A stretch of 64,000 nucleotides of DNA from an uncultured Gammaproteobacteria bacterium (GTDB lineage: Bacteria; Patescibacteriota; Patescibacteriia; Magasanikbacterales; JBBTQS01), in contig CAZVIA010000003.1 in NCBI GenBank assembly GCA_964627525.1, forward strand, positions 21,367 through 85,366, read 5' to 3'. Below the pieces are notes generated by a model. The model was not told the DNA's origin and ran no database searches. It saw nothing but the letters and a program-made list of their open reading frames with translations. The position numbers and the translations under genes are program-made. Shown piece after piece: positions 12,398 through 27,905 of this stretch (positions within the stretch are counted from its first letter, which is position 1; every line of letters starts with the position of its first letter).

Positions 12398-14764
12398 ATG
12401 AATAAAGAATTACCCAAAAAATACGATCACAAAACAACTGAAGATAAAATCAAAAAACTTTGGGAAAAGGAAAAAGTTTTTGAATTTAATTTTGATGAGA
12501 GCAAACCAATTTACGCAGTAGATACACCTCCTCCTTATGTTTCTGCAGATCATTTGCATTCAGGTCATATAATGTCCTATGCTCAAGCAGAATTTATTGT
12601 GCGGTACAAACGCATGAAAGGATTTAATGTTTTTTATCCAATGGGTTTTGATGATAATGGTTTGCCTACAGAAAGATTTGTGGAAAAAAAATATAATATA
12701 GATAAGTCAAAAGTTACAAAGCAAGAGTTTATAAAAATTTGTCTGGAAGAAACAAAAAAAGGTGCGCAAACTTATAAAGAATTGTGGACCAATTTAGGGA
12801 TTTCAGTTGATTGGTCAAAAACTTATAGCACAATTAATCCAACAGCGATAAAAGTTTCGCAGTGGTCGCTGATAGATTTGTTTCAAAAAGGTGCTTTGCA
12901 CAGAAGTGAAGCTCCTGTTTTGTGGTGTCCGCATTGTCAGACAGCTTTGGCTCAAGCAGATTTAGAAGACAAAGAAGATGAGTCAAAATTAAATTATATT
13001 ACTTTTAAATCAAGTGAGGGCGATGATCTTACTATTGCAACTTCTAGACCAGAGTTGTTGCCAGCTTGTGTTGCTTTGTATGTAAATCCAGAGGACAAGC
13101 GATTTAAACATTTGATTGGAAAAACTGCGACAGTGCCTTTGTTTGATTATGAGATTCCAATTAAGCCAAGTGAAAAAGTTGATATGGAATTTGGGACTGG
13201 TTTAATGATGGTTTGTACTTGGGGAGATCAGGAGGATTTAGATAAATGGCGCACAGATAAATTAGATACACGACCTTTGATTAAAGAAGATGGAACTTTG
13301 GGTGAAAATGGTGGTAAGTACAAAGGTATGTATTTGTTAAAAGCTAGAAAAGTTATTTTAGAGGATCTTGATGCGGCAAAATTTCTCACAAAACAAGAAG
13401 ACATCACACATTCTTTAAATGTTCATGAAAGATGTTCAACTGCAACAGAATTTGTTCTTAGTAAGCAGTGGTTTATAAAAATTGATGGGATGAAAGATGT
13501 TTGGTTAAAATATGGTGAACAATTAAATTGGTATCCAAAGTTTAAAGCCAAAGATTATGAGATGTGGGTAAATTCAATTAAATGGGATTGGTGTATTTCA
13601 AGACAGCGATATTATGGTGTGCCTTTTCCAATTTGGTATTGTAAAAAATGTGATGAGCCAGTTTTTGCTGAAGAAAAAGATTTGCCAATTCATCCAACTG
13701 AAAAAAATGCACCTGTTGATAAATGTTCAAAATGCGATTCCACAGATTTTGTTCCAGAAAACGATGTAATGGATACTTGGGCAACTTCTTCTTGCACTCC
13801 ATTTTTATTAAAGGAGTTGGTTGAGGAAAAAGCTAAGGATGCTGTTTTTCCAGTGACACTAAGACCAAATGCTTTTGAGATTATTAGGACTTGGGATTTT
13901 TATTCAATGGTAAAAAGTCATTATCATTTTGGAAAATTGCCTTTTAAGGATGTGATGATTTCAGGTCATGGTTTAGATGAAAAGGGTAAAAAAATATCTA
14001 AGCGTTTGGCTAATTATATTCCAGCCGACAAGTTGATTGAGGAGTTTGGTGCAGATGCAATTCGTTATTGGGCAACAGGTGCAACACTTGGTCGGAATTT
14101 GCGTTTTAATAAACAGGAAATTCAAAAAGGGAAAAAAACTGTTACAAAGTTGTGGAATGTTGCGCAGTTTTTGATTGTGAATAATGCTGAATTTAAAGCT
14201 GAAGAACAACCGGTTTTGGAGTATGCGGATTTGTGGATTTTTGAAGAATTAAACAAAACTATAAAAAGAGCCACAGCTTTGTTTGATAAATATGAATACT
14301 CTAAAGCGCGTGATGAAATTGATGTTTTCTTTTGGTCAAAATTTACTGACTATTACATGGAGTTTATTAAACATCGCTTGTCTGGAGATGATGATCAGTC
14401 AAAAGTTGGTGCGCAATATTGTTTTACAAAAGTTTTTGAAAATATTTTGAAAATGTATGCGCCAATTATGCCGTTTGTTACAGAGGAGTTGTTTCAGGTA
14501 TTTTTTAAAGATGTTAAAGGTTCTGAAAAAACTATTCACTTGTGCGCTTGGCCAGAGCAAATTGATGTTGAGGGTGGGGAATTAGACATTTCTGATTTTG
14601 ATAGTGCGATTGAGGCGATTAATGAGGTTAGGGGATTTAAGTCTGTAAATAATATGTCTTTGGGGACTGAATTACCAGAATATAAATTAAAAACCAAAGT
14701 TGATTTAGAAAAATACGGGGATTTTATTAAAAAAGCTATAAAAGTAGGGGGGTTGTTGGCTTAA
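12398..14764 (+). CDS. valS: valyl-tRNA synthetase (short form)
   Basis: Class I HIGH-like motif (HLHSGH) and KMSKS-like motif (KISKR). The editing-domain stretch NPEDKRFKHLIGK...DMEFGTG closely matches the ValS CP1 consensus NPEDPRYKDLIGK...DMEKGTG. Confidence 0.7.
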   Translation: MNKELPKKYDHKTTEDKIKKLWEKEKVFEFNFDESKPIYAVDTPPPYVSADHLHSGHIMSYAQAEFIVRYKRMKGFNVFYPMGFDDNGLPTERFVEKKYNIDKSKVTKQEFIKICLEETKKGAQTYKELWTNLGISVDWSKTYSTINPTAIKVSQWSLIDLFQKGALHRSEAPVLWCPHCQTALAQADLEDKEDESKLNYITFKSSEGDDLTIATSRPELLPACVALYVNPEDKRFKHLIGKTATVPLFDYEIPIKPSEKVDMEFGTGLMMVCTWGDQEDLDKWRTDKLDTRPLIKEDGTLGENGGKYKGMYLLKARKVILEDLDAAKFLTKQEDITHSLNVHERCSTATEFVLSKQWFIKIDGMKDVWLKYGEQLNWYPKFKAKDYEMWVNSIKWDWCISRQRYYGVPFPIWYCKKCDEPVFAEEKDLPIHPTEKNAPVDKCSKCDSTDFVPENDVMDTWATSSCTPFLLKELVEEKAKDAVFPVTLRPNAFEIIRTWDFYSMVKSHYHFGKLPFKDVMISGHGLDEKGKKISKRLANYIPADKLIEEFGADAIRYWATGATLGRNLRFNKQEIQKGKKTVTKLWNVAQFLIVNNAEFKAEEQPVLEYADLWIFEELNKTIKRATALFDKYEYSKARDEIDVFFWSKFTDYYMEFIKHRLSGDDDQSKVGAQYCFTKVFENILKMYAPIMPFVTEELFQVFFKDVKGSEKTIHLCAWPEQIDVEGGELDISDFDSAIEAINEVRGFKSVNNMSLGTELPEYKLKTKVDLEKYGDFIKKAIKVGGLLA

Positions 14765-14802
14765 TTTAGAGATTAATTTAGGGGGAAATTAAAGTGCAAA
14801 GC

Positions 14803-14831
14803 TTGACAAAGTCAGGCTTATGTGCTATATT
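14803..14831 (+). promoter_or_regulatory. near-consensus sigma70 promoter, TTGACA-17-TATATT
   Basis: TTGACA at 14803-14808 and TATATT at 14826-14831, upstream of the GGGGGTAAAG SD and the ATG at 14878. Confidence 0.5.
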
Positions 14832-14877
14832 TTTGTGTCTGGCAATTTTGCCAAGACCAAGGAAACTGGGGGTAAAG

Positions 14878-15381
14878 ATGAGGGAGAGAATGATATTTTT
14901 CTGTGCTATTTTTGTGCTTATGGCCGCTCTAGTCTATGTCTTTGGTTCCAAAAAGGATTCACCAGAAGTTCAAGAAACAACAGGTGAGCCAAGAAGTGAA
15001 TATAGTGTGGTATTTTGCGAAGTGGGTGAGTTTACAAGTGCTAGGCTTGAGATCACTGGGAATTACTTTCATGATTTTGTTGATCTAAAAGAAGGTAAGT
15101 CTTTTCCTTTGGGAATGGTTTGTGGTAAATGGCACCCCATCAAAGAGTGGGAAGGTCATTTCCAGGTCAATCTTATTCCAAGTAGAAAATACAGTCAGGT
15201 TTTGGTGTGCCTAAAGGGTTTCCCAAATAAAAATAACGTAGGAAGTACGTGTTATAAAGTGATTGATCGCGAGGGTGATTTTGGGATTGTCAGGACCATA
15301 GAGCTTAACATTGGGGAAGAAAAAAACCCTGATCTTTGGCCAGTTCAAAGTTTTGATATGGCGCCACCACCGTCTAACTAG
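14878..15381 (+). CDS. hypothetical exported or membrane-anchored protein, first gene of a GC-richer three-gene operon
   Basis: N-terminal signal-anchor MRERMIFFCAIFVLMAALVYVFG and a strong SD. GC is about 43-45% against about 33% in flanking genes. Confidence 0.5.
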   Translation: MRERMIFFCAIFVLMAALVYVFGSKKDSPEVQETTGEPRSEYSVVFCEVGEFTSARLEITGNYFHDFVDLKEGKSFPLGMVCGKWHPIKEWEGHFQVNLIPSRKYSQVLVCLKGFPNKNNVGSTCYKVIDREGDFGIVRTIELNIGEEKNPDLWPVQSFDMAPPPSN

Positions 15382-15410
15382 GCATAAGACACAGAAACAA
15401 GGAGGCCAAA

Positions 15411-15890
15411 ATGACATCCACAGAGAAAAAGCCTCAGGCTAAAGTTCTTGTGGTCAGTGTGTCAGGTTCCGTTCGGCAATTTTTGGGGAGTGTTGTAGAA
15501 CAAAGAGGTCGTGCTGTAACCAAAGTCCGAAATATTGCTTTTGCTGTTGAATTCATGTTGCATCAAGATGTTGATTTGGTGCTAGTTGATTTGCACCTAG
15601 AAGGCTCGCTGGATTTGATGGTTGAAGCCAAACAAAGACAACCAAATGTGTGTTTGTTGGGGATTGCGCGACATGATACTAATCCAGTGATTGTGTTAGG
15701 TGCATTGCAATTAGGTGGTATGCTAAACTGCCTGGTCATACCTGAAGATGGTCTGGGTGTTGTGTCAGAATTTACACGTGGTTTATTTGCAGATATCATA
15801 GATTCTGGTTTGGAATCAATCAAAGTTGCTTGCCCTCAGTGTAAGGGTGAGGGAACTGTACAGCGTTTTCCTGGTAAAGAAACACCCTAA
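15411..15890 (+). CDS. receiver-like (CheY-fold, non-canonical) domain protein with a C-terminal CxxCxGxG zinc-finger motif
   Basis: VLVVS...DLVLVDL receiver-like pattern lacking the acidic pair. The C-terminal CPQCKGEG is a DnaJ-type CxxCxGxG motif. AAGGAGG SD is present. Confidence 0.45.
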   Translation: MTSTEKKPQAKVLVVSVSGSVRQFLGSVVEQRGRAVTKVRNIAFAVEFMLHQDVDLVLVDLHLEGSLDLMVEAKQRQPNVCLLGIARHDTNPVIVLGALQLGGMLNCLVIPEDGLGVVSEFTRGLFADIIDSGLESIKVACPQCKGEGTVQRFPGKETP

Positions 15891-16041
15891 AGTTGAGAGT
15901 TGCCAACAACTACTTGAGAGCCACTAAGCTTAACGCGCTGGTGGTTTTTAAGTTGTCTAAAAAACTTGACACATCAACCCAACAGTGCTATTGTTTTTTG
16001 TTAAACAAATTTGTTTAACACATGCACGGGAGGGGGAGAAA

Positions 16042-17067
16042 ATGAGGATACTTGAGGTTTTTGCTGTCTATGTTATGGATGTAGTGTTAGCTGGAGTTGG
16101 TTGGGTAAAATGGTTTTACTCTAGGTGTAGGTTTTACATTAAAACCAATATTCTGAATCAAGTGATGTACAAGATTAATCCTAAGCAAAGTGTGCGAATG
16201 TACATGCAAGCAAGTCTGTTGTCTTTACAAAAAGAAAAAGATGAGTTTGCTACATTGGATTTGTTGTTTAGTTTGCCACCACATCTGTCTGATGTTTTGA
16301 CGAATTTTATGATGTACATTCAAGGTGCAAAGGAAATCATGCAATCTTGTGGCACATGGCCATTTGAAAATGAGGATGAGGAATTTAGTAGTACCAAGCT
16401 CAAGCTTATTTATTCCAAACTTGCAAAGTTTTTTCTTGAAAACAAGTGTAGGGGTTTTTTGGAATATGATGAAGCTTTGGATTACCAAGATGCTTTATTG
16501 TGCGAACAACTAAGGCAGTTGATCGGTGCAATGTCTGCAATAGGTAATCCTAGTGCTAGATTTGATCCTTGGTTTTATTTTGCAATGTGGTCTGAGGAAT
16601 TGGATCTTGTTGAGATTGCTTTTTGCAGGTCTTTAGGTAATTACTTGATTGCGCGTGCTAATAAGCAAAGAGCTAACATAAAAGATTATGTACCACCTGG
16701 TTTACCACCAGAATTTGTGGTCAAGTTGATTGAAATGGTTGCAGAGATTAATTTGATTGAGTTGAGTTTGTCAGAAGCAGATAGATTTTATGATGACATT
16801 GGAGTGGATCATAAGACAAGTGATTTCAATACAGTGTGTTTGTTCTTGGGTGGTTATCTGTGTCATCTTTGTGTGGGGGAGTCATTTCCAATACTAGATT
16901 GTGAAATTGGTTTGTTATACCGTGGTCAGATTACAAAGTACTTGGCACATGTCATGTATTCTCTTGTAACTACTGTGCCTGGTGATGAACCAGATCTTTT
17001 ATTTTTCTCTCCTATGGATTGGAAGGATCAAACTTTTGAATTTGAAAGTGAATGGGATGGTGAATAA
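16042..17067 (+). CDS. hypothetical acidic cytoplasmic protein of 341 aa, no recognisable domain
   Basis: GGGAGGGGGAG SD followed by an ATG at 16042. The ORF-track start at 15985 is likely an upstream extension. Confidence 0.5.
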   Translation: MRILEVFAVYVMDVVLAGVGWVKWFYSRCRFYIKTNILNQVMYKINPKQSVRMYMQASLLSLQKEKDEFATLDLLFSLPPHLSDVLTNFMMYIQGAKEIMQSCGTWPFENEDEEFSSTKLKLIYSKLAKFFLENKCRGFLEYDEALDYQDALLCEQLRQLIGAMSAIGNPSARFDPWFYFAMWSEELDLVEIAFCRSLGNYLIARANKQRANIKDYVPPGLPPEFVVKLIEMVAEINLIELSLSEADRFYDDIGVDHKTSDFNTVCLFLGGYLCHLCVGESFPILDCEIGLLYRGQITKYLAHVMYSLVTTVPGDEPDLLFFSPMDWKDQTFEFESEWDGE

Positions 17068-17151: not shown

Positions 17152-17189
17152 TGTTCACTATTGTGAAGAATGTTAGAGTTGAGTTTTGT
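17152..17189 (+). repeat. 38-bp junction repeat, copy 1 (TGTTCACTATTGTGAAGAATGTTAGAGTTGAGTTTTGT)
   Basis: One of six copies of a conserved repeat containing the palindrome TTCAC-TATT-GTGAA and a GATGTTAG(A/G)A core. Confidence 0.8.
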
Positions 17190-17383
17190 TTAGAATTGCA
17201 CTAATCTTTCTTAAATAATAAGATTTTGGTACAGTATATTTGTACTGAATATTTTATGTCTAAAAAATATCAAAAACAATCTGTTATTTATCAAGGTAAA
17301 ACTGGAGCTATTAAAGGAAAAACCCGAAAGATAAAGATAAGATGATTGGGTTGGTTTTGTTGTTGTTGAAGAAATAGTTTTAG

Positions 17384-17421
17384 TGTTCACTGTTGTGAAG
17401 GATGTTAGAACTGGGTTTTGT
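17384..17421 (+). repeat. 38-bp junction repeat, copy 2
   Basis: TGTTCACTGTTGTGAAGGATGTTAGAACTGGGTTTTGT. Confidence 0.8.
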
Positions 17422-17492
17422 GTCATATAATAAGTTTTAATATCTTTATAAAAACACACTGCCCACGTTAATGAGCAGTGTGTGGTAAGAAT

Positions 17493-18014
17493 TCAATAAC
17501 GTTGTCTTTTTGGTTTAATACCTTTGAGATAATAATCAATCCTTTCTTTTTTCCACATTTTTTCAATATTAGCATCATCAGTTCTTGTGCCTGGATAAAC
17601 TCTATTTTTGCCTTTTTCTAAGGTTCTCTTTAATCCAAAACTTTTTGAATCAATATGTGCAATAGTAAGTTCATCAATCAGTTGATCTACTTTTTGTCTT
17701 GTGCTTTGATCTACCCCTTCTCTTTTGCGATCTATGCTATTAGATGTGTTTGGGTCATTACCATGTCCTTCACCTAATAATACTTTTAATTCATCTATGC
17801 TAATTGTTAAACCATGCTTGCTTTGTATTGTTTTACCAATTGCATACAAACAATCATATTTATTTAAACGCATGAAATAACCTTCTTTGTCCTTGAATAC
17901 GAATTTTACAAGGGTGTGATTTTCATCAACCTCTTGTTCAATATTATATTCTCTTTCTTCTCTGTATCGGGATCCTTGGTCATAATTATATCCATATTTT
18001 TTTGGTTCTGTCAC
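17493..18014 (-). CDS. hypothetical protein of 173 aa
   Basis: Clean ORF lying between repeat copies 2 and 3; no recognisable motif. Confidence 0.45.
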   Translation of the reverse strand: MTEPKKYGYNYDQGSRYREEREYNIEQEVDENHTLVKFVFKDKEGYFMRLNKYDCLYAIGKTIQSKHGLTISIDELKVLLGEGHGNDPNTSNSIDRKREGVDQSTRQKVDQLIDELTIAHIDSKSFGLKRTLEKGKNRVYPGTRTDDANIEKMWKKERIDYYLKGIKPKRQRY

Positions 18015-18204
18015 TACTTGCCACCCCTTTTTGTTGGTTAATGTTTGTTGAAATTTACCACCTAGTCTTTTCTGTGTTATTTTGATATTCGTAATTATAG
18101 TTTTTTTAATTTAAAATTAGCTATTTTTTTTGTATAAAAATATTTTGTTCGTGGTTATTGACAAAAAACTTGTTAAATGTTAAGTTGTTGTTCTATTAAA
18201 AACT

Positions 18205-19038
18205 ATGAAAATATTTGATGAAAACCAAAAATTAATTTTTAAATTACAGAAGTGTGGTTTAACAAAAAAACAGACCACTGTTTATCTTGGTCTTTTAGAA
18301 TTAGGAGGTGCTTTTCCTTCAAAAGTTTCTGATTATGTAAACATGAATAGATCAACTGTTTATAAAATTCTTAGTGATTTATCTATTAAAAATTTAATTG
18401 TTGAAACAAAAAAAAGAGGTAAGTGGTTTTATTGTGTTGAAAAACCAGAAAAACTATTGTCTCACAACAAACGCAGGATTAATATATTAAATAAAGAAAT
18501 TAAAAGTACTGAAAATGTTTTAAAGGATTTAAATAGTTTATTTTCTTTAAATTTACAAAAACCAAAAATTAAATTTTATGAGGGTGTTGAAGGGGTCTTA
18601 GAAGTGTTTCGTAGTCATCTGAATATTGAAAAGCCGTATGAAATGTTGGCTGTTTGTAATGCATCTAAGTTTTTAAAATTTATTCCTAATAAGGAATTAA
18701 AAAAATATTTGAAAGCAAAAGAAAAGTTGGAGATTACAACCAGGGGATTAGTGCCAGATACAAATACAGACATCAAATATAATAATAGTGCTTGTAAAAA
18801 TGCTGGGGTTAGCAAAAAAACATGGCCAAAGTTGAGGTTTGTTTCTTCAGAGGTTTTTAATATGGGAAGTGATATAACTGTTTATGGTGAGGATAAAATA
18901 TCAATTATAAATTTTACTAATGATAAATTGATAGGGATTATCATCGAAGATAAAACTATACACGATATGTTTAAAATGGTCTTTAATCTTGCGTGGAAAG
19001 GTGCTGAGAGGGGTTGTTTAAGATGTTCACTATTGTGA
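18205..19038 (+). CDS. TrmB-family-like HTH transcriptional regulator; paralogue of the gene at 24712
   Basis: The N-terminal LTKKQTTVYLGLLELG...STVYKILSDLSIKNLI winged-HTH pattern resembles TrmB. The last six codons and the stop lie inside repeat copy 3. Confidence 0.5.
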   Translation: MKIFDENQKLIFKLQKCGLTKKQTTVYLGLLELGGAFPSKVSDYVNMNRSTVYKILSDLSIKNLIVETKKRGKWFYCVEKPEKLLSHNKRRINILNKEIKSTENVLKDLNSLFSLNLQKPKIKFYEGVEGVLEVFRSHLNIEKPYEMLAVCNASKFLKFIPNKELKKYLKAKEKLEITTRGLVPDTNTDIKYNNSACKNAGVSKKTWPKLRFVSSEVFNMGSDITVYGEDKISIINFTNDKLIGIIIEDKTIHDMFKMVFNLAWKGAERGCLRCSLL

Positions 19039-19061
19039 AGGATGTTAGGATTGGGTTTTTT
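19024..19061 (+). repeat. 38-bp junction repeat, copy 3
   Basis: TGTTCACTATTGTGAAGGATGTTAGGATTGGGTTTTTT. Confidence 0.8.
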
Positions 19062-19125
19062 TAGATATTTTATAATTTCAGTCGGTATGGTAGTATAGAT
19101 TATATAAGTTTAATCAAATAAATAT

Positions 19126-19557
19126 ATGAATTTTCAAATAGAAAATTGTGGTTTTTGCCAATATAATAAAACCAAAAATACATTCAAAAAAATGAATTTT
19201 CAGCCAAGTGGAATTGAAGGTGGAGGTCAAAATAGCGCAGAAAGAGCTGGTTTTTGTAAAGATGGGAATAATCCAGAGACGTGCGAGACATGTAAAACAG
19301 AAAATGAAATTAAATTAATGGAAGCTCAAGCTGAAATTGATAATAGAGCAAAAATAGTGGACGCAGAAGCAGGTGAGTTAAGAGCACAAAGTATTAGGGC
19401 TACTGGTGAGCAAATGCATAGACAGATGGCAGATGATGCAGAAATGACTGCAAGGCAAATGGAGAGGTTTGGTTATGGAAAAGGTAAAGAAAGGTTAAAT
19501 ACATTTCATGACAAAAACGAAGAATTTTACGATCAAAGAGGTAGAAAAAAAGAATAA
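19126..19557 (+). CDS. hypothetical zinc-ribbon protein (CGFC...CETC) with a coiled-coil C-terminus, copy 1
   Basis: 143 aa with two CxxC pairs and an A/E/R-rich helical tail. Confidence 0.5.
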   Translation: MNFQIENCGFCQYNKTKNTFKKMNFQPSGIEGGGQNSAERAGFCKDGNNPETCETCKTENEIKLMEAQAEIDNRAKIVDAEAGELRAQSIRATGEQMHRQMADDAEMTARQMERFGYGKGKERLNTFHDKNEEFYDQRGRKKE

Positions 19558-19627
19558 TAGTTATATAAGGTTATTAAACAGAAGTTTTTTTGTTTGTGTT
19601 AATATAGTAAATATTTAATCAAAAACC

Positions 19628-20200
19628 ATGAGAGGAGAAAGAAGACCTGGAGAAGGTTCTAATGCGCGTGAGTTTAAAGCGCCCTCATCACTTTCTGAAG
19701 AAGATCATTATTCTACTTTGGGAGTTTCTAGAAATTCTAGCCCTGCTGAACTTAAAGCAGCTTATCGTGCGTTGGCACAAATCCATCATCCAGATAAAGG
19801 TGGTAATGAGGAAGATTTTAAACTTGTTGGTCAAGCTTTTGAAGTTCTTAGTGATCCAGGTCAGCGTGAGACATATGATCTTACTAAGTTTGCGCCTAGC
19901 AGTCCTGAACAACAAACATACGAAACAGGTGTTAGGCAGCCTACTGAAGAAGAAAAGAGAAGAATGGATGAGGAACTTGCCAAAGATAGAGCCAGAAGAG
20001 AAAAAGAGAGAAAAGAGAGAAAAGAAAAATGGAGAAAAGAACATCCAGAACTTGCAAGACAGCAAGATGAAATTGGGGCAGCTAAAAAAGAAGCAGTAAG
20101 CCAAGTAAAGGAAGATTTAGCCAAAGCAAAGGAAGATTTAGCAAAAATGAAAACTGATTTAAGAGCTAGGGCAGCTGAAATGAAAAGTAAACGGTTCTAA
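19628..20200 (+). CDS. J-domain (DnaJ-like) protein with a K/E-rich coiled-coil tail, copy 1
   Basis: DHYSTLGVSRNSSPAELKAAYRALAQIHHPDKGG...FKLVGQAFEVLSDPGQRETYD is a canonical J-domain with the HPD motif. Confidence 0.75.
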   Translation: MRGERRPGEGSNAREFKAPSSLSEEDHYSTLGVSRNSSPAELKAAYRALAQIHHPDKGGNEEDFKLVGQAFEVLSDPGQRETYDLTKFAPSSPEQQTYETGVRQPTEEEKRRMDEELAKDRARREKERKERKEKWRKEHPELARQQDEIGAAKKEAVSQVKEDLAKAKEDLAKMKTDLRARAAEMKSKRF

Positions 20201-20241
20201 TATTAACATTACCTATCTCAATTTTTACTTGAACTTAGTAG

Positions 20242-20279
20242 TGTTCACTATTGTGAAGGATGTTAGGATTGGGTTTTTT
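20242..20279 (+). repeat. 38-bp junction repeat, copy 4
   Basis: Identical to copy 3. Confidence 0.8.
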
Positions 20280-20343
20280 TAGATATTTTATAATTTCAGT
20301 CGGTATGGTAGTATAGATTATATAAGTTTAATCAAATAAATAT

Positions 20344-20775
20344 ATGAATTTTCAAATAGAAAATTGTGGTTTTTGCCAATATAATAAAACCAAAAATACA
20401 TTCAAAAAAATGAATTTTCAGCCAAGTGGAATTGAAGGTGGAGGTCAAAATAGCGCAGAAAGAGCTGGTTTTTGTAAAGATGGGAATAATCCAGAGACGT
20501 GCGAGACATGTAAAACAGAAAATGAAATTAAATTAATGGAAGCTCAAGCTGAAATTGATAATAGAGCAAAAATAGTGGACGCAGAAGCAGGTGAGTTAAG
20601 AGCACAAAGTATTAGGGCTACTGGTGAGCAAATGCATAGACAGATGGCAGATGATGCAGAAATGACTGCAAGGCAAATGGAGAGGTTTGGTTATGGAAAA
20701 GGTAAAGAAAGGTTAAATACATTTCATGACAAAAACGAAGAATTTTACGATCAAAGAGGTAGAAAAAAAGAATAA
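20344..20775 (+). CDS. hypothetical zinc-ribbon protein, copy 2 (identical)
   Basis: 100% identical duplicate. Confidence 0.5.
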   Translation: MNFQIENCGFCQYNKTKNTFKKMNFQPSGIEGGGQNSAERAGFCKDGNNPETCETCKTENEIKLMEAQAEIDNRAKIVDAEAGELRAQSIRATGEQMHRQMADDAEMTARQMERFGYGKGKERLNTFHDKNEEFYDQRGRKKE

Positions 20776-20845
20776 TAGTTATATAAGGTTATTAAACAGA
20801 AGTTTTTTTGTTTGTGTTAATATAGTAAATATTTAATCAAAAACC

Positions 20846-21418
20846 ATGAGAGGAGAAAGAAGACCTGGAGAAGGTTCTAATGCGCGTGAGTTTAAAGCGC
20901 CCTCATCACTTTCTGAAGAAGATCATTATTCTACTTTGGGAGTTTCTAGAAATTCTAGCCCTGCTGAACTTAAAGCAGCTTATCGTGCGTTGGCACAAAT
21001 CCATCATCCAGATAAAGGTGGTAATGAGGAAGATTTTAAACTTGTTGGTCAAGCTTTTGAAGTTCTTAGTGATCCAGGTCAGCGTGAGACATATGATCTT
21101 ACTAAGTTTGCGCCTAGCAGTCCTGAACAACAAACATACGAAACAGGTGTTAGGCAGCCTACTGAAGAAGAAAAGAGAAGAATGGATGAGGAACTTGCCA
21201 AAGATAGAGCCAGAAGAGAAAAAGAGAGAAAAGAGAGAAAAGAAAAATGGAGAAAAGAACATCCAGAACTTGCAAGACAGCAAGATGAAATTGGGGCAGC
21301 TAAAAAAGAAGCAGTAAGCCAAGTAAAGGAAGATTTAGCCAAAGCAAAGGAAGATTTAGCAAAAATGAAAACTGATTTAAGAGCTAGGGCAGCTGAAATG
21401 AAAAGTAAACGGTTCTAA
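20846..21418 (+). CDS. J-domain protein, copy 2 (identical)
   Basis: 100% identical duplicate. Confidence 0.75.
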   Translation: MRGERRPGEGSNAREFKAPSSLSEEDHYSTLGVSRNSSPAELKAAYRALAQIHHPDKGGNEEDFKLVGQAFEVLSDPGQRETYDLTKFAPSSPEQQTYETGVRQPTEEEKRRMDEELAKDRARREKERKERKEKWRKEHPELARQQDEIGAAKKEAVSQVKEDLAKAKEDLAKMKTDLRARAAEMKSKRF

Positions 21419-21459
21419 TATTAACATTACCTATCTCAATTTTTACTTGAACTTAGTAG

Positions 21460-21497
21460 TGTTCACTATTGTAGAGGATGTTAGAACTGGGTTTTAT
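21460..21497 (+). repeat. 38-bp junction repeat, copy 5 (variant TGTTCACTATTGTAGAGGATGTTAGAACTGGGTTTTAT)
   Basis: The palindrome is disrupted (GTAGA instead of GTGAA); this copy ends the duplicated block. Confidence 0.75.
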
Positions 21498-21539
21498 TTG
21501 ACTTGATTTAGTAAATATGCTAATTTCAATATAGATTAC

Positions 21540-21700
21540 AATTTAATATAAACGTATCCAGAGAGTAGAGATGTTAAGGGAATTGACCCAAAGCTCTACC
21601 CGCAACCTATTTGTTTAGGTGCGAAATTCAACCCTATTGGGATAGATACTAGGAATCACTGGATGACGTCGCCCTTAAGGTGACTTTTTATTTTAGTTAT
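21540..21700 (+). promoter_or_regulatory. structured GC-richer leader ending in an intrinsic terminator (riboswitch- or attenuator-like)
   Basis: Several local hairpins (GTAGAG...CTCTAC; CGCAACCT...AGGTGCG). A terminator GUCGCC-cuuaa-GGUGAC followed by TTTTTATTTT lies at about 21665-21700, immediately upstream of the ORF at 21711. Confidence 0.35.
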
Positions 21701-21710
21701 CAAGGTCATC

Positions 21711-21962
21711 TTGTGGGCGACATCATCAAAAAACAGCCTTGCATCAATTCCGATGCAAGGTGTTGTTTTTTGTAAAAAGCCCAAAAAGAGAGTGACTATG
21801 GCCTGGGAAGGAATGAGAAAGTGTGTTTTCTGTCGCAGTGCTTGGTGTAAGTGTGGAAATCTGAGAAGAGAAAGAGAAAGGGTAAAGGCTGGTGGGAAGA
21901 GAAATAAATCAAGAACCTACACCAACAAGACTCCTCGGCTAGGGATTGTGAGGGTAAACTAA
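21711..21962 (+). CDS. small Cys- and K/R-rich hypothetical protein of 83 aa
   Basis: ORF with FCKKPKK...CVFCRSAWCKCGN. Weak evidence; could be non-coding. Confidence 0.25.
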   Translation: MWATSSKNSLASIPMQGVVFCKKPKKRVTMAWEGMRKCVFCRSAWCKCGNLRRERERVKAGGKRNKSRTYTNKTPRLGIVRVN

Positions 21963-21977
21963 ATAAACAACACAAAC

Positions 21978-22018
21978 AAGAAAACCGTTGTGTATAACAC
22001 ATAGCGGTTTTTCTTTTA
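21978..22018 (+). terminator. rho-independent terminator
   Basis: ACCGUUGUGU-auaa-CACAUAGCGGU stem with G-U pairs, followed by TTTTTCTTTT. Confidence 0.5.
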
Positions 22019-22022
22019 AAAA

Positions 22023-22060
22023 ATGTTCACTATTGTGAAGGATGTTAGAACTGGGTTTTG
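22023..22060 (+). repeat. 38-bp junction repeat, copy 6
   Basis: TGTTCACTATTGTGAAGGATGTTAGAACTGGGTTTTGT; the last copy, abutting the ABC-transporter operon. Confidence 0.8.
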
Positions 22061-22118
22061 TGTACCCCATGGTGTGTAACACTATATTATTTAGATTGGG
22101 TATGTCATTTCTATTTTC

Positions 22119-22910
22119 TTAACAGAGGATGTCAAGATCAGTTTTAGTGGCATTGCCAGTCCAATGTATAATTTTTCTTTCCAAAATACTGAATAATTTG
22201 TTCAGAGTAAAACCTAATAATCCGACAATAATTATATAAGCATAAAGTTCAGCGATTTTATAAGTAATGTAACTGTCGTAAATTTTTTGTCCTAAACCAA
22301 ATTTTGTTCCTATAAACATTTCTGTAACCACTACCACAATTAATGCTAAAGAGATTGCTACTCGTAAACCGATTGCAATTTGAGGCAGTGCAGCAGGAAT
22401 AATTATTCTTTTGATCAGCTGATATTTCGATGCATTATATATTTTTCCAACTTTAATCATTAGATGGTGGATATTCCAAACACCGAGTATTGTGTTTATT
22501 TGTATAATCCAAAAGCAAATAAAGACAGTAATAACTATTTTTGATAAGTCTCCAATTCCAAAGAATAGCAAAAATAAAGGGAAAAGAGCTGTGGCAGGAA
22601 GTGCGCGAAAGAATTCAATAGTTCCTTCTAAAAGAGAAAAGAGTTTTTTGTTTAGTCCAATTATAATTCCACACGATATGCCAAAGAAAGCGGCAATGAG
22701 AAATCCTGTAAAAGTTCTATAAAATGTTTCTTGTAAATCAATTAAGTAGTCATGACTCACAATGATGAGAAAGACTTCTTTTATGTTTGGAAGATAGAAT
22801 TGATTTATCTTGAATAGATAATTTGAAGCTGCCCAAATTAATAAGAACGAGATAGGTATCAAAAGAGGGGTGATGAATTTTTTACATTTTAATAGTTTAG
22901 TTTTCATCAT
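22119..22910 (-). CDS. ABC transporter permease (nitrate/sulfonate/bicarbonate, SsuC/TauC-like family)
   Basis: Six TM helices with an EAA-like loop; overlaps the upstream substrate-binding protein gene by 14 bp. Confidence 0.7.
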   Translation of the reverse strand: MMKTKLLKCKKFITPLLIPISFLLIWAASNYLFKINQFYLPNIKEVFLIIVSHDYLIDLQETFYRTFTGFLIAAFFGISCGIIIGLNKKLFSLLEGTIEFFRALPATALFPLFLLFFGIGDLSKIVITVFICFWIIQINTILGVWNIHHLMIKVGKIYNASKYQLIKRIIIPAALPQIAIGLRVAISLALIVVVVTEMFIGTKFGLGQKIYDSYITYKIAELYAYIIIVGLLGFTLNKLFSILERKIIHWTGNATKTDLDILC

Positions 22911-23886
22911 TGGCTTTTTTTAAGTACCGTGGCTCTATTAAGTTTATGTAGTCAATTTTTTGTTTAGGATCAAACCATTCTTTTTCTAGTGTCAATTCAT
23001 CAAGTAAATCATCTTCGAGACTAATTTTAAAAGTATATTTATCCCAACTATCTTTAAGCTGGTCTTTATCCATTCCAGTTATATCAGAGACTATTTCTAT
23101 TGATTTGTTTCGATCTTGTTGGATAAAGTCAGTCGCATCAATTAAAGCTTTTTGAAATGCAATTATTGTTGTCTGGTTAGCCTCATTTTCAAGAAAAGAA
23201 TCAGTTGCCATTGTTAGATATGGTAAGGCATGCAATCCTTTTTCTTTGCCAAAAATTATTATTTTGTCAGCTCCGATTAAATTAGTTGTGTTTGTTATAA
23301 ATGGTTCCCATGCACAGAAAGCATCGAGCTCCTTATTTTGTAGTGCACTTGGTAATGCTAGTGGCTGATTAAGTTTAATCAATTCATAAGTATCTTTTTC
23401 AATTCCAACTTCCTTTAGAGTATTGATAATAGCTAATTGTGTTATTGTTCCTTTTACATAACCAATCTTTTTGTTTTGTAAGTCAGATAATGTATTAATG
23501 TTTGAATCAATTCGTGCAATTATTTGAAAATCATCAGCCAATGTGACTTGATTAATTATTTTTACATCTCCTCTCTGAAATGAAAAATGCACAAAAGGAG
23601 TAACTCCAGTTGATGCAAATTGAGCTTTATTAGATGTTAGTGCATGCAGTGTTTCAAGACCTGTTGTAAAATAAACCATCTCAACATCTAGACCGTTTTT
23701 TTTAAAGAATTCTTTTTCCTTGGCGATGATATATGGTGCTGCCAAAGGAATTTTATGTGTAGCAAAAACAATAGAGCGTGTTTCTTGTTGAGATTCTTGA
23801 ATCGAATTGTTGGGTAAGAGATAGAATAGTCCAAAAATGGCTATTAAAGATAATATTACAAGTATTGGGTAGAGAATTTTTTTCAT
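22897..23886 (-). CDS. ABC transporter substrate-binding protein (NMT1/SsuA-like)
   Basis: N-terminal signal anchor plus a periplasmic binding-protein fold pattern. Located between the ATPase and permease genes. Confidence 0.6.
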   Translation of the reverse strand: MKKILYPILVILSLIAIFGLFYLLPNNSIQESQQETRSIVFATHKIPLAAPYIIAKEKEFFKKNGLDVEMVYFTTGLETLHALTSNKAQFASTGVTPFVHFSFQRGDVKIINQVTLADDFQIIARIDSNINTLSDLQNKKIGYVKGTITQLAIINTLKEVGIEKDTYELIKLNQPLALPSALQNKELDAFCAWEPFITNTTNLIGADKIIIFGKEKGLHALPYLTMATDSFLENEANQTTIIAFQKALIDATDFIQQDRNKSIEIVSDITGMDKDQLKDSWDKYTFKISLEDDLLDELTLEKEWFDPKQKIDYINLIEPRYLKKANDEN

Positions 23887-23905
23887 ATGTTTATTTAATT
23901 ATTGG

Positions 23906-24661
23906 TTATAATTGATTAAGATATGACAATAAAATTTTATTTTTAAATGTTGCAAAGTTTGAACTACCAATGATTTTTGTGTTTCTTGGATAAGGTAGTG
24001 GATTTTTAAATATATTTGATATGGTTGTTGGTTTATTGCTTAATAGAACAATTTTTTGTGCCAGAAAAATCGCTTCATCTATATCATGAGAAACATATAT
24101 TGTAGTGATCTTTTTTTTCATCCATATATCATGTAGTTTTGTTAATAAAAATAATTTTGTTTGATAATCAAGTGACGAAAGAGGTTCATCAAGTAGATAT
24201 AAGTCTGGTTCAATAATTAATCCTCGTAAAATAGATATCATTTGTTGTTGCCCACCACTTAGTTGATAAGGGTATTGATTGAGATCTGTGTTTATGTTTA
24301 AGTTTTTACATATTTGGGAAAAAAGTTTTTTTTGCTCCAACTTGTTAATGTGTCTTAGTTTGAGAGGGAATAGTATATTGTCTTTTACTTTAAGCCAAGG
24401 GAAAAGTGATTTTCTGTAATCTTGGAATACCATTGCAATATTAGGTTTTTTCTTATTTTGGTTATTAATAGAAAACACTCCATTTGTTGCTTTGGTCAAA
24501 TTACTTATTATTTCAAGTAAGGTAGTCTTTCCACATCCGTTTGGACCTAAGAGAGCAACAAATTCACCTTGTTGAATGTTTAGATTTATCTGTTTGAGAA
24601 CCTCGACAGGGTGGTCTTTGTTTGAAGTGTAATTTTTACTAATATTAGTTAGTTTAAGCAT
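23906..24661 (-). CDS. ABC transporter ATP-binding protein
   Basis: Walker A GPNGCGKTT, signature LSGGQQQ, Walker B LLDEP. Confidence 0.85.
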   Translation of the reverse strand: MLKLTNISKNYTSNKDHPVEVLKQINLNIQQGEFVALLGPNGCGKTTLLEIISNLTKATNGVFSINNQNKKKPNIAMVFQDYRKSLFPWLKVKDNILFPLKLRHINKLEQKKLFSQICKNLNINTDLNQYPYQLSGGQQQMISILRGLIIEPDLYLLDEPLSSLDYQTKLFLLTKLHDIWMKKKITTIYVSHDIDEAIFLAQKIVLLSNKPTTISNIFKNPLPYPRNTKIIGSSNFATFKNKILLSYLNQL

Positions 24662-24711
24662 ATTTGTCTTTATATACTTTACAATACTATACTAATCTAG
24701 TATGTTAAATA

Positions 24712-25560
24712 GTGTCGTCGACATGCGACAACAAATATAAATTTATGCTTGAAAAGGTATTTATTAAATTAAATTTGGATGAAAAACATACTAGGGTTTA
24801 CTTAACACTTTTTGAAGAGAGTGTTTCGACTGCTGGTAAATTATCAAAGAAGTTAAGTATTCCTCGTTCTACTTTGTATGGTTTGCTATATGATTTAAAT
24901 AAAAAAGGCTTGGTAATTCAAAGTGAAAAACAAGGAATAAAAGTATGGCAGGCTGAATCACCTGATAAGTTAAAACATTTAATCAATAATGAAATTAATA
25001 ATTTGGAAGATTTAAATTTGAACTTATCTACATTAATTACTGAATTGAAAAACAAGGAAAAACAAGATTTTGTTAGTCCTAAATTTAGCTATTTTGAAGG
25101 TCCTGATGCTTTAAGGCAAATGCTTAAAGATGTGTTATGTTATAGAAATATCGATACTATTGCTTTTTGGCCAATTAGTGAAATGATAAAAATATTAGGA
25201 AAAGATTTTTTTATATATTCTAATAAGGAAAGAATTAAGCGTAACATTTCTGCAAAAGTACTTTGGCCAAATGATAGGCAGGTGGATTTAAAAGATAATG
25301 TATTTTTAGGAGTGGGGAATGATTTTAAAAGAGAAATTAGAATTGCTCCCAAAAACATAGATTGTTCTATGGGATATTGGGCATATGAAAACAAAGCAGC
25401 TTTTTTGTCTTCAAAAAAAGAAAGCTTTGGTTTTATTGTTGAAAGTGTTGAATTAAAGCAGTTGTTAGAAACTCAATTTAATGTTTTGTGGGAATTATCA
25501 AAGTCTATAAAACCACAAAAAGCTCACACACAAAAATTTATTAATGAGCTGAACTTGTAA
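24712..25560 (+). CDS. TrmB-family-like HTH regulator, paralogue of 18205-19038; divergent from the ABC operon
   Basis: Same architecture and alignable residues (RVYLTLFE...STLYGLLYDLNKKGLV...PDKLKHLIN). The true start may be the internal Met at about 24745. Confidence 0.5.
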   Translation: MSSTCDNKYKFMLEKVFIKLNLDEKHTRVYLTLFEESVSTAGKLSKKLSIPRSTLYGLLYDLNKKGLVIQSEKQGIKVWQAESPDKLKHLINNEINNLEDLNLNLSTLITELKNKEKQDFVSPKFSYFEGPDALRQMLKDVLCYRNIDTIAFWPISEMIKILGKDFFIYSNKERIKRNISAKVLWPNDRQVDLKDNVFLGVGNDFKREIRIAPKNIDCSMGYWAYENKAAFLSSKKESFGFIVESVELKQLLETQFNVLWELSKSIKPQKAHTQKFINELNL

Positions 25561-25830
25561 ATAGTTCTAATTTCCACATAAGTTATTTCGATTATCCTTT
25601 AAGTTTACAAAAATGGTTTCCACTTTTGGATGCGCTCAGAACTATGAATTGAGGTAATTATAAAGATTTTTTCAAGGTGACTAACCTTTCAATTGAAGAA
25701 GTTTTTGTTTGATTATTTCTTTTAGACCTGCTTTTTCTAATTTTATTTTTTTGTTTGTAAGAGATTATACCTAAAATTTCTACTATGAATCCTATTAATG
25801 TTCCTGTGATCGATAATTTTTATATTAAAA

Positions 25831-26901: not shown

Positions 26902-27905
26902 ATTTTTGGATTTTTAAACAAGTCCTTGTTTTTTATTATTATTCTTTCAAAAGGTGCTTTAAATGGCTTTCCGTCTTTTTCAATCCATAGTGTCGCTTTG
27001 TCTCCTTTAAATCTAATGGTTTTTTCAACCTGCACACCTTTACCTATAATTTCAAATTGGTCAGGGTTATATTTTGTTAAAAATGTTATTGGAACTCCCA
27101 TCTCGCCTTTATAATCATATGGTATGTTTTTTGTTTTGTTGACATCAATTCCATTGTAATTATAGTAATTTGGATATTTCTCGGAGTCGTAAGATTCGGT
27201 CAATATCATTCTGTCGTGACGATACGATACATCTAGGTTTGTATACCATTTACATGCTCTAGGCACAGAACCTTCTGGGTTTTTTGAAAGTAGTAGAGTA
27301 TTATCAATTAAACGAAAGCCAGTTAACTGCTTGGCGTAACCAAGCCACATTTTGTCGTCTTTTATGTGACTAAAGATTTCTTTATATGTTATGGCTGTTA
27401 AGGGGCCAATGACTAAAAAATTCATTTTATTTTTAAACATTGTGTCAATGAATTCTCTAAATTGACTAAATGGCGGGTTTGTTATTACTAAGTCATATTT
27501 TGAATAATCAACATCCTGAAATTTAACACCTTTACCTGTTGCAGGATTATATCCGCTGGCAGAAATAGATGATATGTCATAAGTGTCAGCGTGAGCCACT
27601 AGAAATTTAACAAAATTACATTTAATCAAAGACAACTCTTTTTCTATTTTCTTTTTTGATGCTTTAATATTTATTTTTTTTATTGTTCCTCCGCTGTCTA
27701 GTAGATTTGATGGGGTGATGTAACCTTCTTCTTTGAAAACAATTTCTTCTTCATAACTTTCATCCCAATCACAAGGGCATAATATTCTTTTACTTTTTAG
27801 TTGCTCCTTATATAAAGAAACTTCTTTTGATATGTCTTCGTATAAAGTGTAGAATTCATCGTCCTTGGCCTTATTTGCTTTGTATAGTGATTTTTTAGTG
27901 CCCAT
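26898..27905 (-). CDS. EcoRI-methylase-family N6-adenine DNA methyltransferase
   Basis: Collinear with M.EcoRI as recalled: DEFYT, CPCDWDE, DLVITNPPFSQFREF, KMWLG, CKWYTNLDV, GVPITFLTKYNPDQFEII. Overlaps the downstream nuclease gene by 4 bp. Confidence 0.8.
   Translation of the reverse strand: MGTKKSLYKANKAKDDEFYTLYEDISKEVSLYKEQLKSKRILCPCDWDESYEEEIVFKEEGYITPSNLLDSGGTIKKINIKASKKKIEKELSLIKCNFVKFLVAHADTYDISSISASGYNPATGKGVKFQDVDYSKYDLVITNPPFSQFREFIDTMFKNKMNFLVIGPLTAITYKEIFSHIKDDKMWLGYAKQLTGFRLIDNTLLLSKNPEGSVPRACKWYTNLDVSYRHDRMILTESYDSEKYPNYYNYNGIDVNKTKNIPYDYKGEMGVPITFLTKYNPDQFEIIGKGVQVEKTIRFKGDKATLWIEKDGKPFKAPFERIIIKNKDLFKNPKI

Follow-up and report, generated by a model that had tools for sequence, protein, structure and literature searches.

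Short repeats between small gene cassettes downstream of a tRNA-Gln gene, and the large serine recombinase that may act on them

The stretch of DNA considered here (the window, 64 kb in all) holds, in one of its regions, genes that have little to do with one another and that are set apart by copies of a single short repeat. How might such an arrangement arise, and what could have moved the genes? The features on which an answer depends are these, with the repeat copies numbered c1 to c6 and LSR standing for large serine recombinase.

17152 to 17189, plus strand: repeat c1, the most diverged copy (4/38 mismatches)
17384 to 17421, plus strand: repeat c2
17493 to 19038: cassette between c2 and c3, with a 173-aa ORF (17493-18014, minus) and a TrmB-like regulator (18205-19038, plus)
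19024 to 19061, plus strand: repeat c3
19024 to 20241 and 20242 to 21459, plus strand: duplicated units of 1218 bp each, 100% identical
20242 to 20279, plus strand: repeat c4, a hybrid at the point where the tandem duplicates join
21460 to 21497, plus strand: repeat c5, palindrome broken (GTAGA replaces GTGAA)
21551 to 21962, plus strand: cassette between c5 and c6, with a SAM-I-like riboswitch (21551-21652), terminator-like hairpins and a 69-aa ORF (21753-21962)
22024 to 22061, plus strand: repeat c6
22119 to 25560: ABC block, with a NitT/TauT-type operon (22119-24661, minus) and a divergent TrmB-like regulator (24712-25560)
25831 to 33832: probable integrated element adjoining tRNA-Gln, with GmrSD/HNH, an EcoRI-like methylase, DUF5659, unknown proteins and, last, the recombinase
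32225 to 33832, plus strand: LSR, with Resolvase, Recombinase and Zn_ribbon_recom domains
33810 to 33832, plus strand: LSR/tRNA junction, GTTCACAAT followed by GGTTCGGGGACTAG
33818 to 33891, minus strand: tRNA-Gln (CTG), the putative anchor of the island

An earlier note on this sequence had counted six 38-bp copies of the repeat, and all six are there, although the last begins at 22024 rather than 22023. At up to three mismatches the 38-mer matches at 17384, 19024, 20242, 21460 and 22024, always on the plus strand, and shuffled sequence gives no match at that threshold; c1 was recovered with a 24-nt sub-pattern and by repeat finding. Even at up to 9 mismatches in 38, no seventh copy appeared anywhere in the 64-kb window. 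The six are packed within 5 kb, with none in the other 59 kb, so that within the window there is none of the random intergenic scatter that the note had named as the mark of a generic element. The inverted repeat of 5 bp that it ascribed to each copy (TTCAC-N4-GTGAA) is present in five and broken in c5. Successive copies lie 232, 1640, 1218, 1218 and 564 nt apart. A CRISPR array can be rejected, because these intervals contain genes, whereas CRISPR arrays have regular repeats of 25 to 40 nt with spacers of 25 to 60 nt between them. The most distant copy from tRNA-Gln is c1, which has a terminator and a 341-aa gene to its left; the TrmB-like ORF ends within the first 15 nt of c3, which provide its final codons and its TGA stop; and c6, on the minus strand, lies 58 nt past the stop of the ABC permease gene.

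The genes between the repeats are those that had been proposed from the sequence: a TrmB-like regulator, a DnaJ-domain protein and proteins of 143 and 173 aa, for the last two of which no homologues were found outside the species. The 232-bp unit between c1 and c2 has room for only one possible ORF, of 29 aa (17257-17346). A structured leader had also been proposed, and it reads as a SAM-I riboswitch with a sub-threshold score. The element that carries GmrSD and the LSR has no clear site at its left end, where only weak candidates were seen (25563-25571 and 25722-25737).

The repeats are not peculiar to this locus. They belong to what is apparently an undescribed but widespread family of recombination sites, about 35 bp long, that bound small swappable cassettes. 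The shared core, AGGAYGTTMGAACYNGKTTT, has matches in 114 metagenome contigs, as against one random-looking match in a viral collection, and conservation of the site drops sharply at -14/-16 and at +19, leaving a conserved unit of about 35 nt. Arrays hold 2 to 5 copies, typically 350 to 1500 bp apart, and every significant copy within one locus is on one strand. With the sites read in the sense of the tRNA, the ORF that precedes a site is sense in 56 cases and antisense in 8, and the cargo consists mostly of single accessory genes of highly varied kinds, GNAT, NUDIX, Fic/DOC and glyoxalase among them. In the nearest relative, whose ABC binding protein is 67% identical to that of the window, four homologous sites (core AGTTCGAACGTCCT, against AGTTCTAACATCCT in the window) lie on the same strand, with a cargo that differs from that of the window. 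Two of them flank the TrmB-ABC block, and the sites also flank a zeta-toxin-like kinase and a 249-aa gene.

The idea of a cassette-shuffling locus, with repeats as the points of exchange, has fared well in these comparisons, in that relatives have homologous repeats around different genes and differ in their cassettes. The sharpest case is a pair of near-identical strains (loci L114 and L126) whose sequences agree at 99.75% of positions along 5.5 kb, the last 200 nt having 0 mismatches, and show no relation beyond the final T of the site, so that the switch of cassettes falls exactly at the repeat. A homologous SDR cassette occurs in two different arrays, and there the homology begins inside the site, at GTTCGAAC. 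Sites in one orientation that bound cassettes varying between strains are a trait of integrons, and these arrays share it.

The duplication at the repeats, also noticed earlier, is a perfect tandem copy of 1218 bp, each unit of which encodes a zinc-ribbon protein of 143 aa and a DnaJ-domain protein of 190 aa. Its junction lies within the first 13 nt of the repeat, dyad centre included, and c4 accordingly has an upstream flank of c5 type and is of c3 type from position 14 on. Taken alone, the duplication could equally stem from homologous or slipped recombination on 13 nt of identity. That it arose as an artefact of assembly or by ordinary unequal crossing-over between short homologous stretches, and is uninformative about site-specific recombination, is doubtful in our judgment, even though 13 nt is also the longest identical block common to c3 and c5 and the unit is present once in all other metagenome contigs that span both its junctions. 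Copy number differs between samples, and a separate unitig (L010) consists of exactly one unit plus 13 nt. This unitig has both its start and its end precisely where the shared sequence stops, which requires reads that join the end of a unit to its start and which argues against an artefact.

What ties these arrays to one place in the genome? In all 12 of the loci that bear a tRNA gene the sites are in tRNA-sense orientation, and in 11 of the 12 they lie downstream of the tRNA. At 8 loci 6 to 8 consecutive bases at the end of the site are the same as in the tRNA's own 3' end (for example CCGCTCCA, GTCGCCC and CAGCCAA). One locus (L146) gives the full order: a tRNA-Gln, an antisense LSR overlapping it, 5.8 kb of sequence and then a site that ends in CAGCCAA. 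The window has this same geometry, its repeats being tRNA-sense and downstream of tRNA-Gln; the end of its site, ..GTGAACA, fits the outer flank of tRNA-Gln and the 3' end of the LSR (8/9 nt) better than the acceptor strand.

The LSR is the sole recurrent recombinase near the arrays, found at 6 loci and always on the same strand as the sites, although within the sequence examined these are 6 of about 90 loci and most arrays have none nearby. In the window it lies 10 kb from c6, on the strand of the sites, and the final 5 codons of its gene run antisense across the 3' end of tRNA-Gln. At that junction GTTCACAAT agrees with the left portion of the repeat sequence (GTTCACTAT), and the agreement stops at the AT in the centre of the palindrome; when the 3' end of the LSR is joined to the arm of the site, TTCACAATTGTGAA results. 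Two loci (L144 and L145) carry the site within the LSR ORF itself, at its 3' end and in the same frame. Among the 150 closest LSR homologues, the translated site core, ..W..EDVRT.. (sought as [ED][VI]R[TN] in the last 50 aa), forms the C-terminal tail of 20, and antisense-tRNA motifs occur in the last 50 aa of another 47; control windows gave 0 to 2, with one exception at 11. The site translates as FTIVKDVRTGF in the window and as WSSLVQDVRTSF at L101, and the DVRT frame of the window's sites is out of frame with the window's LSR. From the co-occurrence and the coding overlap we infer that an LSR would catalyse exchange at these sites. Single cassettes may be mobile as well.

We therefore come to the reading that we prefer, and to which we give a probability of about 0.6: the repeats would be att-type junctions of elements and cassettes that were mobilised by an LSR and stacked downstream of a tRNA, with the layout of an integron and yet not an integron. 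Read on the tRNA-sense strand (the window's minus strand), the site begins with a conserved arm of about 25 nt, AAAAC(A/C)(G/C)GTTCTAAC(G/A)TCCT.., that goes with the cassette on that side. After the arm comes a short imperfect dyad, TTCAC-AATA-GTGAA in the window, and then a variable end of 6 to 10 nt, which in most related loci reproduces the 3' acceptor end of the tRNA beside it. The recombinase would be an LSR from the same family as that at 32225-33832. A free, circular element would have its site within the 3' end of the gene for this enzyme, with the arm encoding ..W-x3-V-E-D-V-R-T.., and integration would fuse that gene to the antisense strand of the tRNA and so replace the C-terminus. 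Exchange would occur at the dyad centre, which in c6 would be the AT at 22032-22033. Serial integration at the tRNA could have pushed older units outward and left an array in one orientation, and any unit bounded by two sites might then excise, re-insert or duplicate, which would explain the 1218-bp duplication. The window would hold one such island, running from tRNA-Gln (33891) to c1 (17152) and consisting, in that direction, of the recombinase element, then the TrmB-ABC block and then five small cassettes.

How well does such a site agree with what is known of LSRs? Their attachment sites are about 40 to 50 bp long, with an imperfect dyad around a central crossover dinucleotide. The window has its 5-bp inverted repeat around AT, and the consensus has CTCC-N7-GGAG, with weak symmetry in the outer arms; LSR sites seldom have a palindromic central dinucleotide, as AT would be here. 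The canonical reaction of large serine integrases is between attP and attB, and none is known to use arrays of attR-like sites, so that the building and shuffling of such arrays would need non-canonical behaviour or extra factors.

Could the repeats instead be passive scars, each the remnant of an old and independent recombinase element that has since decayed, so that the cassettes are immobile and the array is only history? If the site is the displaced 3' coding end of a recombinase gene, then every integration must leave one behind, and recombinases are indeed absent near most arrays. Islands of just this build have been described in Prochlorococcus as serial integrations with scattered partial tRNAs (10.1101/2020.12.28.424599). 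The tycheposons found there use tRNA genes as integration targets and have partial-tRNA att repeats on their flanks, a minority carry large serine recombinases, and newcomers push older elements outward, with remnants, tandem junctions and duplications as here (10.1101/2020.12.28.424599). Unlike tycheposons, the units here are often single genes of 0.2 to 1.5 kb that lack a recombinase or replication module, and the repeat is more than a copy of a tRNA end, since its arm of about 25 nt is universal across different target tRNAs. Scars also sit poorly with arrays as compact as L203 (5 sites in 3.4 kb, with ORFs that abut the sites and no recombinase fragments between), with the sharp edges and high conservation of the site, with whole cassettes that differ exactly at the site between 99.75%-identical strains, with one cassette bounded inside the site in two different arrays and with a unit whose copy number varies within a population. 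We consider passive scars unlikely.

Much less probable still is a regulatory or selfish intergenic repeat, whether a TrmB operator, a promoter/terminator module or a REP/MITE-like element. Operators of the TrmB family have TCAC..GTGA half-sites, which TTCAC-N4-GTGAA resembles, and the locus has two TrmB-like genes and promoter-like hexamers after some copies. Against this, the region has about as many promoter and terminator matches as chance would give, the palindrome differs between lineages while the non-palindromic arm is kept, the sites occur alike in convergent, divergent and tandem intergenic contexts and their orientation is uniform within every array; unrelated neighbour genes, the tie to tRNA 3' ends and the embedding in recombinase ORFs also count against it.

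Least credible of all is a true integron with short attC-like sites that act as folded single strands under a tyrosine integrase whose gene lies elsewhere in the genome. Cassettes that mostly hold a single gene, one site after each ORF in one orientation, diverse cargo that differs between strains (GNAT, glyoxalase, NUDIX and toxin-like genes, as in sedentary arrays) and a GTTAGAA core that loosely fits GTTRRRY are what these arrays have in common with integrons, but attC sites are structured and 57 to 141 bp long, whereas the site here is conserved as primary sequence over about 35 bp, with a dyad of only 4 to 5 bp and with none of the R''/L''/L'/R' architecture. The loose likeness to attC in the earlier note thus does not amount to membership. 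DNA folding of all copies on both strands gave only a 5-bp hairpin of about -3 kcal/mol, absent in c5, with mostly unremarkable z-scores. As the note had said, the window has no intI, nor has it any other tyrosine recombinase (Pfam scans of the main ORFs of at least 120 aa gave no Phage_integrase match), no attI or Pc was found, and near related arrays no tyrosine recombinase family reached two of the 129 neighbouring ORFs; anchoring at tRNA 3' ends and a serine recombinase whose own ORF contains the site are foreign to integrons. The palindrome makes better sense as the dyad of a site for a serine recombinase, and the GTTAGAA core as a T-loop-like arm that also encodes the ..DVRT.. tail of the recombinase.

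With the LSR-made array as the preferred reading, two other systems offer partial precedents. In SCCmec, the large serine recombinases CcrAB direct integration at the 3' end of rlmH and the target gene is regenerated, and composites contain tandem elements, including some that have no recombinase, set apart by direct repeats of the integration site. Serine-recombinase elements at the 3' end of a conserved gene are common to both; here, however, the target is a tRNA, the units are 10 to 100 times smaller and the site is in the recombinase ORF. In the mycobacteriophages BPs and Brujita, attP lies in a coding region and integration into a tRNA gene alters the C-terminus of the encoded protein, as it would here, but those phages use a tyrosine integrase and it is their repressor gene that is split, whereas the split gene here would be the serine recombinase itself.

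A broader and decidedly tentative idea is that we are looking at a serine-recombinase counterpart of the integron, in which a large LSR family may capture and shuffle single-gene cassettes at tRNA 3' ends by way of a conserved site of about 35 bp inside its own coding sequence, in small-genome, probably CPR-type hosts of groundwater and sediments, and in which integration and excision may rewrite the C-terminal tail of the LSR (EDVRT-type or tRNA-antisense-type). If this were true, the rewriting could serve as a built-in switch of the direction or activity of the recombinase.

The 38-mer that the earlier note had placed at gene junctions occurs in six plus-strand copies, c1 to c6 (at 17152, 17384, 19024, 20242, 21460 and 22024), with none in shuffled sequence and no further copy in the 64 kb at up to 9 mismatches. 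The copies differ at 0–4 positions, and outside about 40 nt their similarity ends abruptly. Between them lie these gene units:

One unit: a possible 29-aa ORF
One unit: a 173-aa ORF on the minus strand and a TrmB-like regulator (18205-19038, +) with its stop codon inside c3
One unit occurring twice: a 143-aa zinc-ribbon protein and a DnaJ-domain protein
One unit: a SAM-I-like riboswitch (in 21551-21962, +), below the Rfam threshold, and a 69-aa ORF

Among 5.8 billion clusters, the 173-aa and 143-aa proteins were without relatives beyond their own cluster. The riboswitch matches RF00162 at 32.2 bits (E 2e-4), where the gathering score is 44.4. Two terminator-like hairpins and then the 69-aa Cys/Arg-rich ORF come after it, the whole forming its own cassette; it is aimed at the 3' end of an opposite-strand NitT/TauT-type ABC operon, and antisense control of that operon is conceivable.

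What kind of site, then, is this repeat? Integrons are the textbook platform for the capture of single genes, and they need one clade of tyrosine recombinases together with folded attC sites. The layout here is alike, but two defining features that we looked for, IntI (among the window's main ORFs and the ORFs near related arrays) and a structured attC, were not found. Folded as single-stranded DNA, either strand gives just a 5-bp hairpin of about -3 kcal/mol (c5 has no hairpin), which rules out an attC-like structure and a terminator alike. The core is T-arm-like only when a 2-nt insertion is permitted, and a true partial tRNA or pseudo-tRNA is rejected, with ARAGORN detecting no tRNA at the sites. 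A dif/Xer-like site was rejected as well: GGATGTTAGAA agrees by eye with 7/11 positions of the XerD arm, but the palindromic partner arm is absent. Rfam holds no family for the repeats (its sole match is the subthreshold riboswitch in one cassette), and a promoter is ruled out because the region has no more promoter-like matches than chance would give.

Scans for the window's exact repeat variant came back empty from species-representative genomes, JGI metagenome contigs, and IMG/VR viral contigs, and the variant is therefore species-specific. The productive query was the degenerate core only, which could be derived once a relative was known. The ABC binding protein adjoining c6 has a homologue, 67% identical, on contig L101 of the nearest relative, and this relative does hold homologous repeats: four same-strand copies reading ..AAAC(A/T)AGTTCGAACGTCCTGTACTAAGGAGCTCCA, whose core shares homology with the window repeat in reverse complement, AGTTCTAACATCCTTCAC, whereas the palindromic part is unlike (GGAGCTCC there vs. 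TTCAC-N4-GTGAA in the window). These sites border a TrmB-ABC block, a zeta-toxin-like kinase, and a 249-aa gene, and the intergenic regions that contain them are convergent, tandem, and divergent, a spread that speaks against the site acting as a promoter, terminator, or operator.

The core common to both species, AGGAYGTTMGAACYNGKTTT, matches 114 metagenome contigs, many of them from 0.1-um groundwater filtrates; its one match in IMG/VR is coding and random-looking. Conservation around the core runs from about -14/-16 to +19 and is zero beyond, giving the consensus site tGGCTCCGCcTAGTGGAGGAyGTTAGAACCTGTTTT. Arrays consist of 2–5 copies, typically spaced 350–1500 nt apart, and in a profile search all significant copies within a locus were on the same strand. 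ORFs abut or overlap the sites (one contig, L203, packs five sites into 3.4 kb); read opposite to the window's plus strand, the site comes after a sense ORF in 56 cases and after an antisense ORF in 8, with a distance from stop codon to site that is mostly <100 nt. The neighbors are highly diverse accessory genes (GrpB, NUDIX, GNAT, glyoxalase, Fic/DOC, RhuM, GIY-YIG, HNH, kinases, cupin, HIT, SDR).

Four loci (L124:3960-4112, L152:2753-2814, L179:~11000-11055, and L203:~2880-2929) have, before or after the site, either another, partial core (ATGTTCGAACCTT..) or an isolated 3' fragment of a tRNA; they resemble empty junctions or nested integrations. A more distant relative with a 53%-identical binding protein (L106:11746-15180) has, behind the same ABC operon, an array of some ten small ORFs that share one strand, some of them paralogous, with four repeated strong hairpins, AACGCCAATCA-N3-TGATTGGCGTT, and a class I aminoacyl-tRNA synthetase gene at the far end; its repeat differs from the window repeat although the locus is similar.

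Two pairs of contigs bear on the cassette shuffling that the earlier note had suggested. Over 5.5 kb, L114 and L126 share 99.75% identity, with 0 mismatches in the final 200 nt, and they become unrelated right after the last T of the site. An SDR cassette, 84% identical, sits in two separate arrays (L116 and L117), where homology starts within the site at GTTCGAAC and the left parts of the two sites are unlike. The conserved arm thus moves with the cassette on one side, the variable part stays with its context on the other, and the exchange point lies between the two.

The duplication reported at the repeats also holds, 19024-20241 being identical to 20242-21459. Copy c4 is a hybrid: its upstream flank is that of c5, but from the 14th base on it reads as c3, which puts the duplication junction inside TGTTCACTATTGT, a position consistent with the exchange point proposed from the contig pairs. 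Exact-protein look-ups retrieved the same locus from several metagenomes, all near-identical strains of one sample set, and the 1218-bp unit is single in every metagenome contig that covers both its junctions. The strain is present in SRR8062331, SRR9166041, JGI 3300009374/75 and 3300009405, and the ENA SUTE22-1 and SCRA20-1 sets. From one sample came a separate unitig of 1231 bp, which starts with TGTTCACTATTGT and has the same 13 nt at its end. In an assembly graph, such a unitig arises only when reads run from the unit's end back into its beginning, and so a tandem copy or a circle of the unit was present in that sample too.

Many arrays lie near tRNA genes. The site is tRNA-sense in 12 of the 12 loci with a tRNA and downstream of the tRNA in 11, and in 8 loci, its variable end has 6–8 identical bases in a run with the tRNA 3' end, for example CCGCTCCA and CCCGCTC for Gly; GTCGCCC and GCACCC for His; GGAGCAA, GCGGAG, and GGAGCA for Asn; and CAGCCAA for Gln. 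The conserved arm, for its part, resembles a T-arm given the 2-nt insertion (AGGTTCTAACGTCCT against AGGTTCGAA--TCCT). That the palindrome varies between lineages and yet is kept follows from one half having to fit the local tRNA end, to which the inner part of the arm is complementary. Six loci have in common a tRNA-Asn with hpf-fmt-def beside the array, which points to a chromosomal position conserved within that lineage.

Which enzyme acts here? When all ORFs near the sites were clustered, large serine recombinases (LSRs) were the sole recurrent recombinase family, found in six loci including the window (32225-33832) and always on the strand of the sites; no tyrosine recombinase family had two members among the 129 neighboring ORFs. 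One contig (L146) has the full layout of a tRNA-Gln, an antisense LSR overlapping the tRNA 3' end, 5.8 kb of cargo, and a site ending in the tRNA's CAGCCAA. In two others (L144 and L145), the site lies within the 3' end of the LSR ORF, in the same frame, coding for ..(K/E)DVRTCF... The consensus site translates to WLRLVEDVRTCFV and then a stop, the window site to FTIVKDVRTGF, and that of L101 to WSSLVQDVRTSF. Information content is highest at second codon positions, the variable positions of the core are mostly synonymous (GAY, MGA, ACY), and 63% of the array copies have a stop within +20..+40, as against 31% and 7% for the two alternative frames, only a modest signal that these copies are still translated.

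In an independent library, where 1559 homologues of the window LSR have E-values up to 1e-30, we examined the tails of the 150 closest. The last 50 residues held a translated antisense tRNA (..W..[DE]SNP..) in 47/150, about a third, with 0–2 in control 50-residue windows, and the core-encoded [ED][VI]R[TN] (..EDVRT.., usually with W before it) in 20/150, about one in seven, with 0–2 in control windows and 11 in one. Typically, then, a gene of the LSR family has its end either within a tRNA gene or within a site of this kind. Many of the homologues also share an (L/F)EP motif ~40 residues before the end, which could be read from TTCGAACC-like sequence.

The sequences show the site's anatomy, the uniformly oriented arrays, the tRNA anchoring, the cassette polymorphism at the site, and the coding overlap with the LSR family. 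We infer that LSR-borne elements use the site for attachment. A free element would carry it within the recombinase ORF, with a predicted attP of ..CTTCGTTCACAAT joined to TGTGAAGGATGTTAGAACTGGGTTTT.. at the exchange point. Integration at a tRNA 3' end would fuse the ORF to antisense tRNA, and the distal junction would keep the arm together with a copied tRNA end. Once the tRNA end is regenerated, further integrations there would stack units in one orientation, and units bounded by two sites could be excised, reinserted, or duplicated by recombinase in trans.

On this model, the island in the window would read, in minus-strand order:

33891-33818, minus: tRNA-Gln
32225-33832, plus: LSR, antisense to the tRNA, its last five codons antisense to the tRNA CCA and acceptor end
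Cargo: DUF5659, unknown proteins, EcoRI-like methylase, GmrSD/HNH
TrmB-ABC
c6 through c1

The left part of the repeats, GTTCACTAT, has a match, GTTCACAAT, just outside tRNA-Gln and at the end of the LSR, and this match stops at AT, the center of the repeat palindrome; the LSR end joined to the arm makes a perfect palindrome, TTCACAATTGTGAA. Some caveats apply to this window in particular. The putative AT center of the window site is palindromic, the variable end of the site is not a copy of the tRNA-Gln acceptor strand, and the DVRT frame of the window sites is not continuous with the window LSR. At the left end of the GmrSD-LSR element, we found no clear site, only weak candidates. Between the second TrmB-like gene and GmrSD, in the gap 25561-25830, lie two weak repeat-like fragments: AGTTCTAA (25563-25571, inverted) and TTAGACCTGCTTTTT (25722-25737). 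They could be what is left of a decayed site or could match by chance; the closest relative has a full repeat at the equivalent spot, past the stop of its TrmB gene. The TrmB-like ORF within the array takes its C terminus, ..RCSLL and stop, from the first 15 nt of c3 (TGT TCA CTA TTG TGA), and the recombinase reading frame, if carried on through a repeat, would give the same ending.

SCCmec-type composite islands, built by serine recombinases, are close to the window system, and the closest described biology is that of tRNA-anchored islands built by serial integration. Unlike either, the system here has a universal ~25-nt arm common to different tRNA targets, very small cassettes without their own recombinase, and a site embedded in the recombinase ORF. 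A few of the Prochlorococcus tycheposons carry LSRs, and tandem junctions and duplications have been reported there alongside partial tRNAs (10.1101/2020.12.28.424599). In the literature on integrons and serine-recombinase cassette arrays in CPR bacteria, we found no description of this site.

The site family is widespread, and its mechanism is directly testable. If our reading is true, a second cassette platform, mechanistically unrelated to integrons and consisting of a serine recombinase and a short double-stranded site anchored at tRNA genes, would represent convergent evolution of gene-capture arrays, and it would account for the exchange of accessory genes in very small genomes with few classical mobile elements. 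The 35-bp site could serve as a simple marker of flexible gene pools in metagenomes and would account for many contig breaks in such assemblies. A recombinase with the site in its own ORF suggests a testable idea of how serine integrases could sense the integrated vs. the excised state, and compact natural pairs of site and recombinase are of practical interest for genome engineering.

Outside the array, between valS and the first repeat, lie three GC-richer ORFs of 195, 159, and 341-360 aa (14794-17067, +), with no Pfam match above threshold and one weak receiver-domain match. The valyl-tRNA synthetase itself (12398-14764, +) is of archaeal (DPANN) type: among species-representative genomes, where a synteny search found no close relative, its best matches are Woese- and Nanoarchaeota enzymes, 42–48% identical, and bacterial ones reach at most 29%. 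The remainder of the window is clearly bacterial (GreA, TypA, LigA, DnaG, RpoD, and type IV pilus genes).
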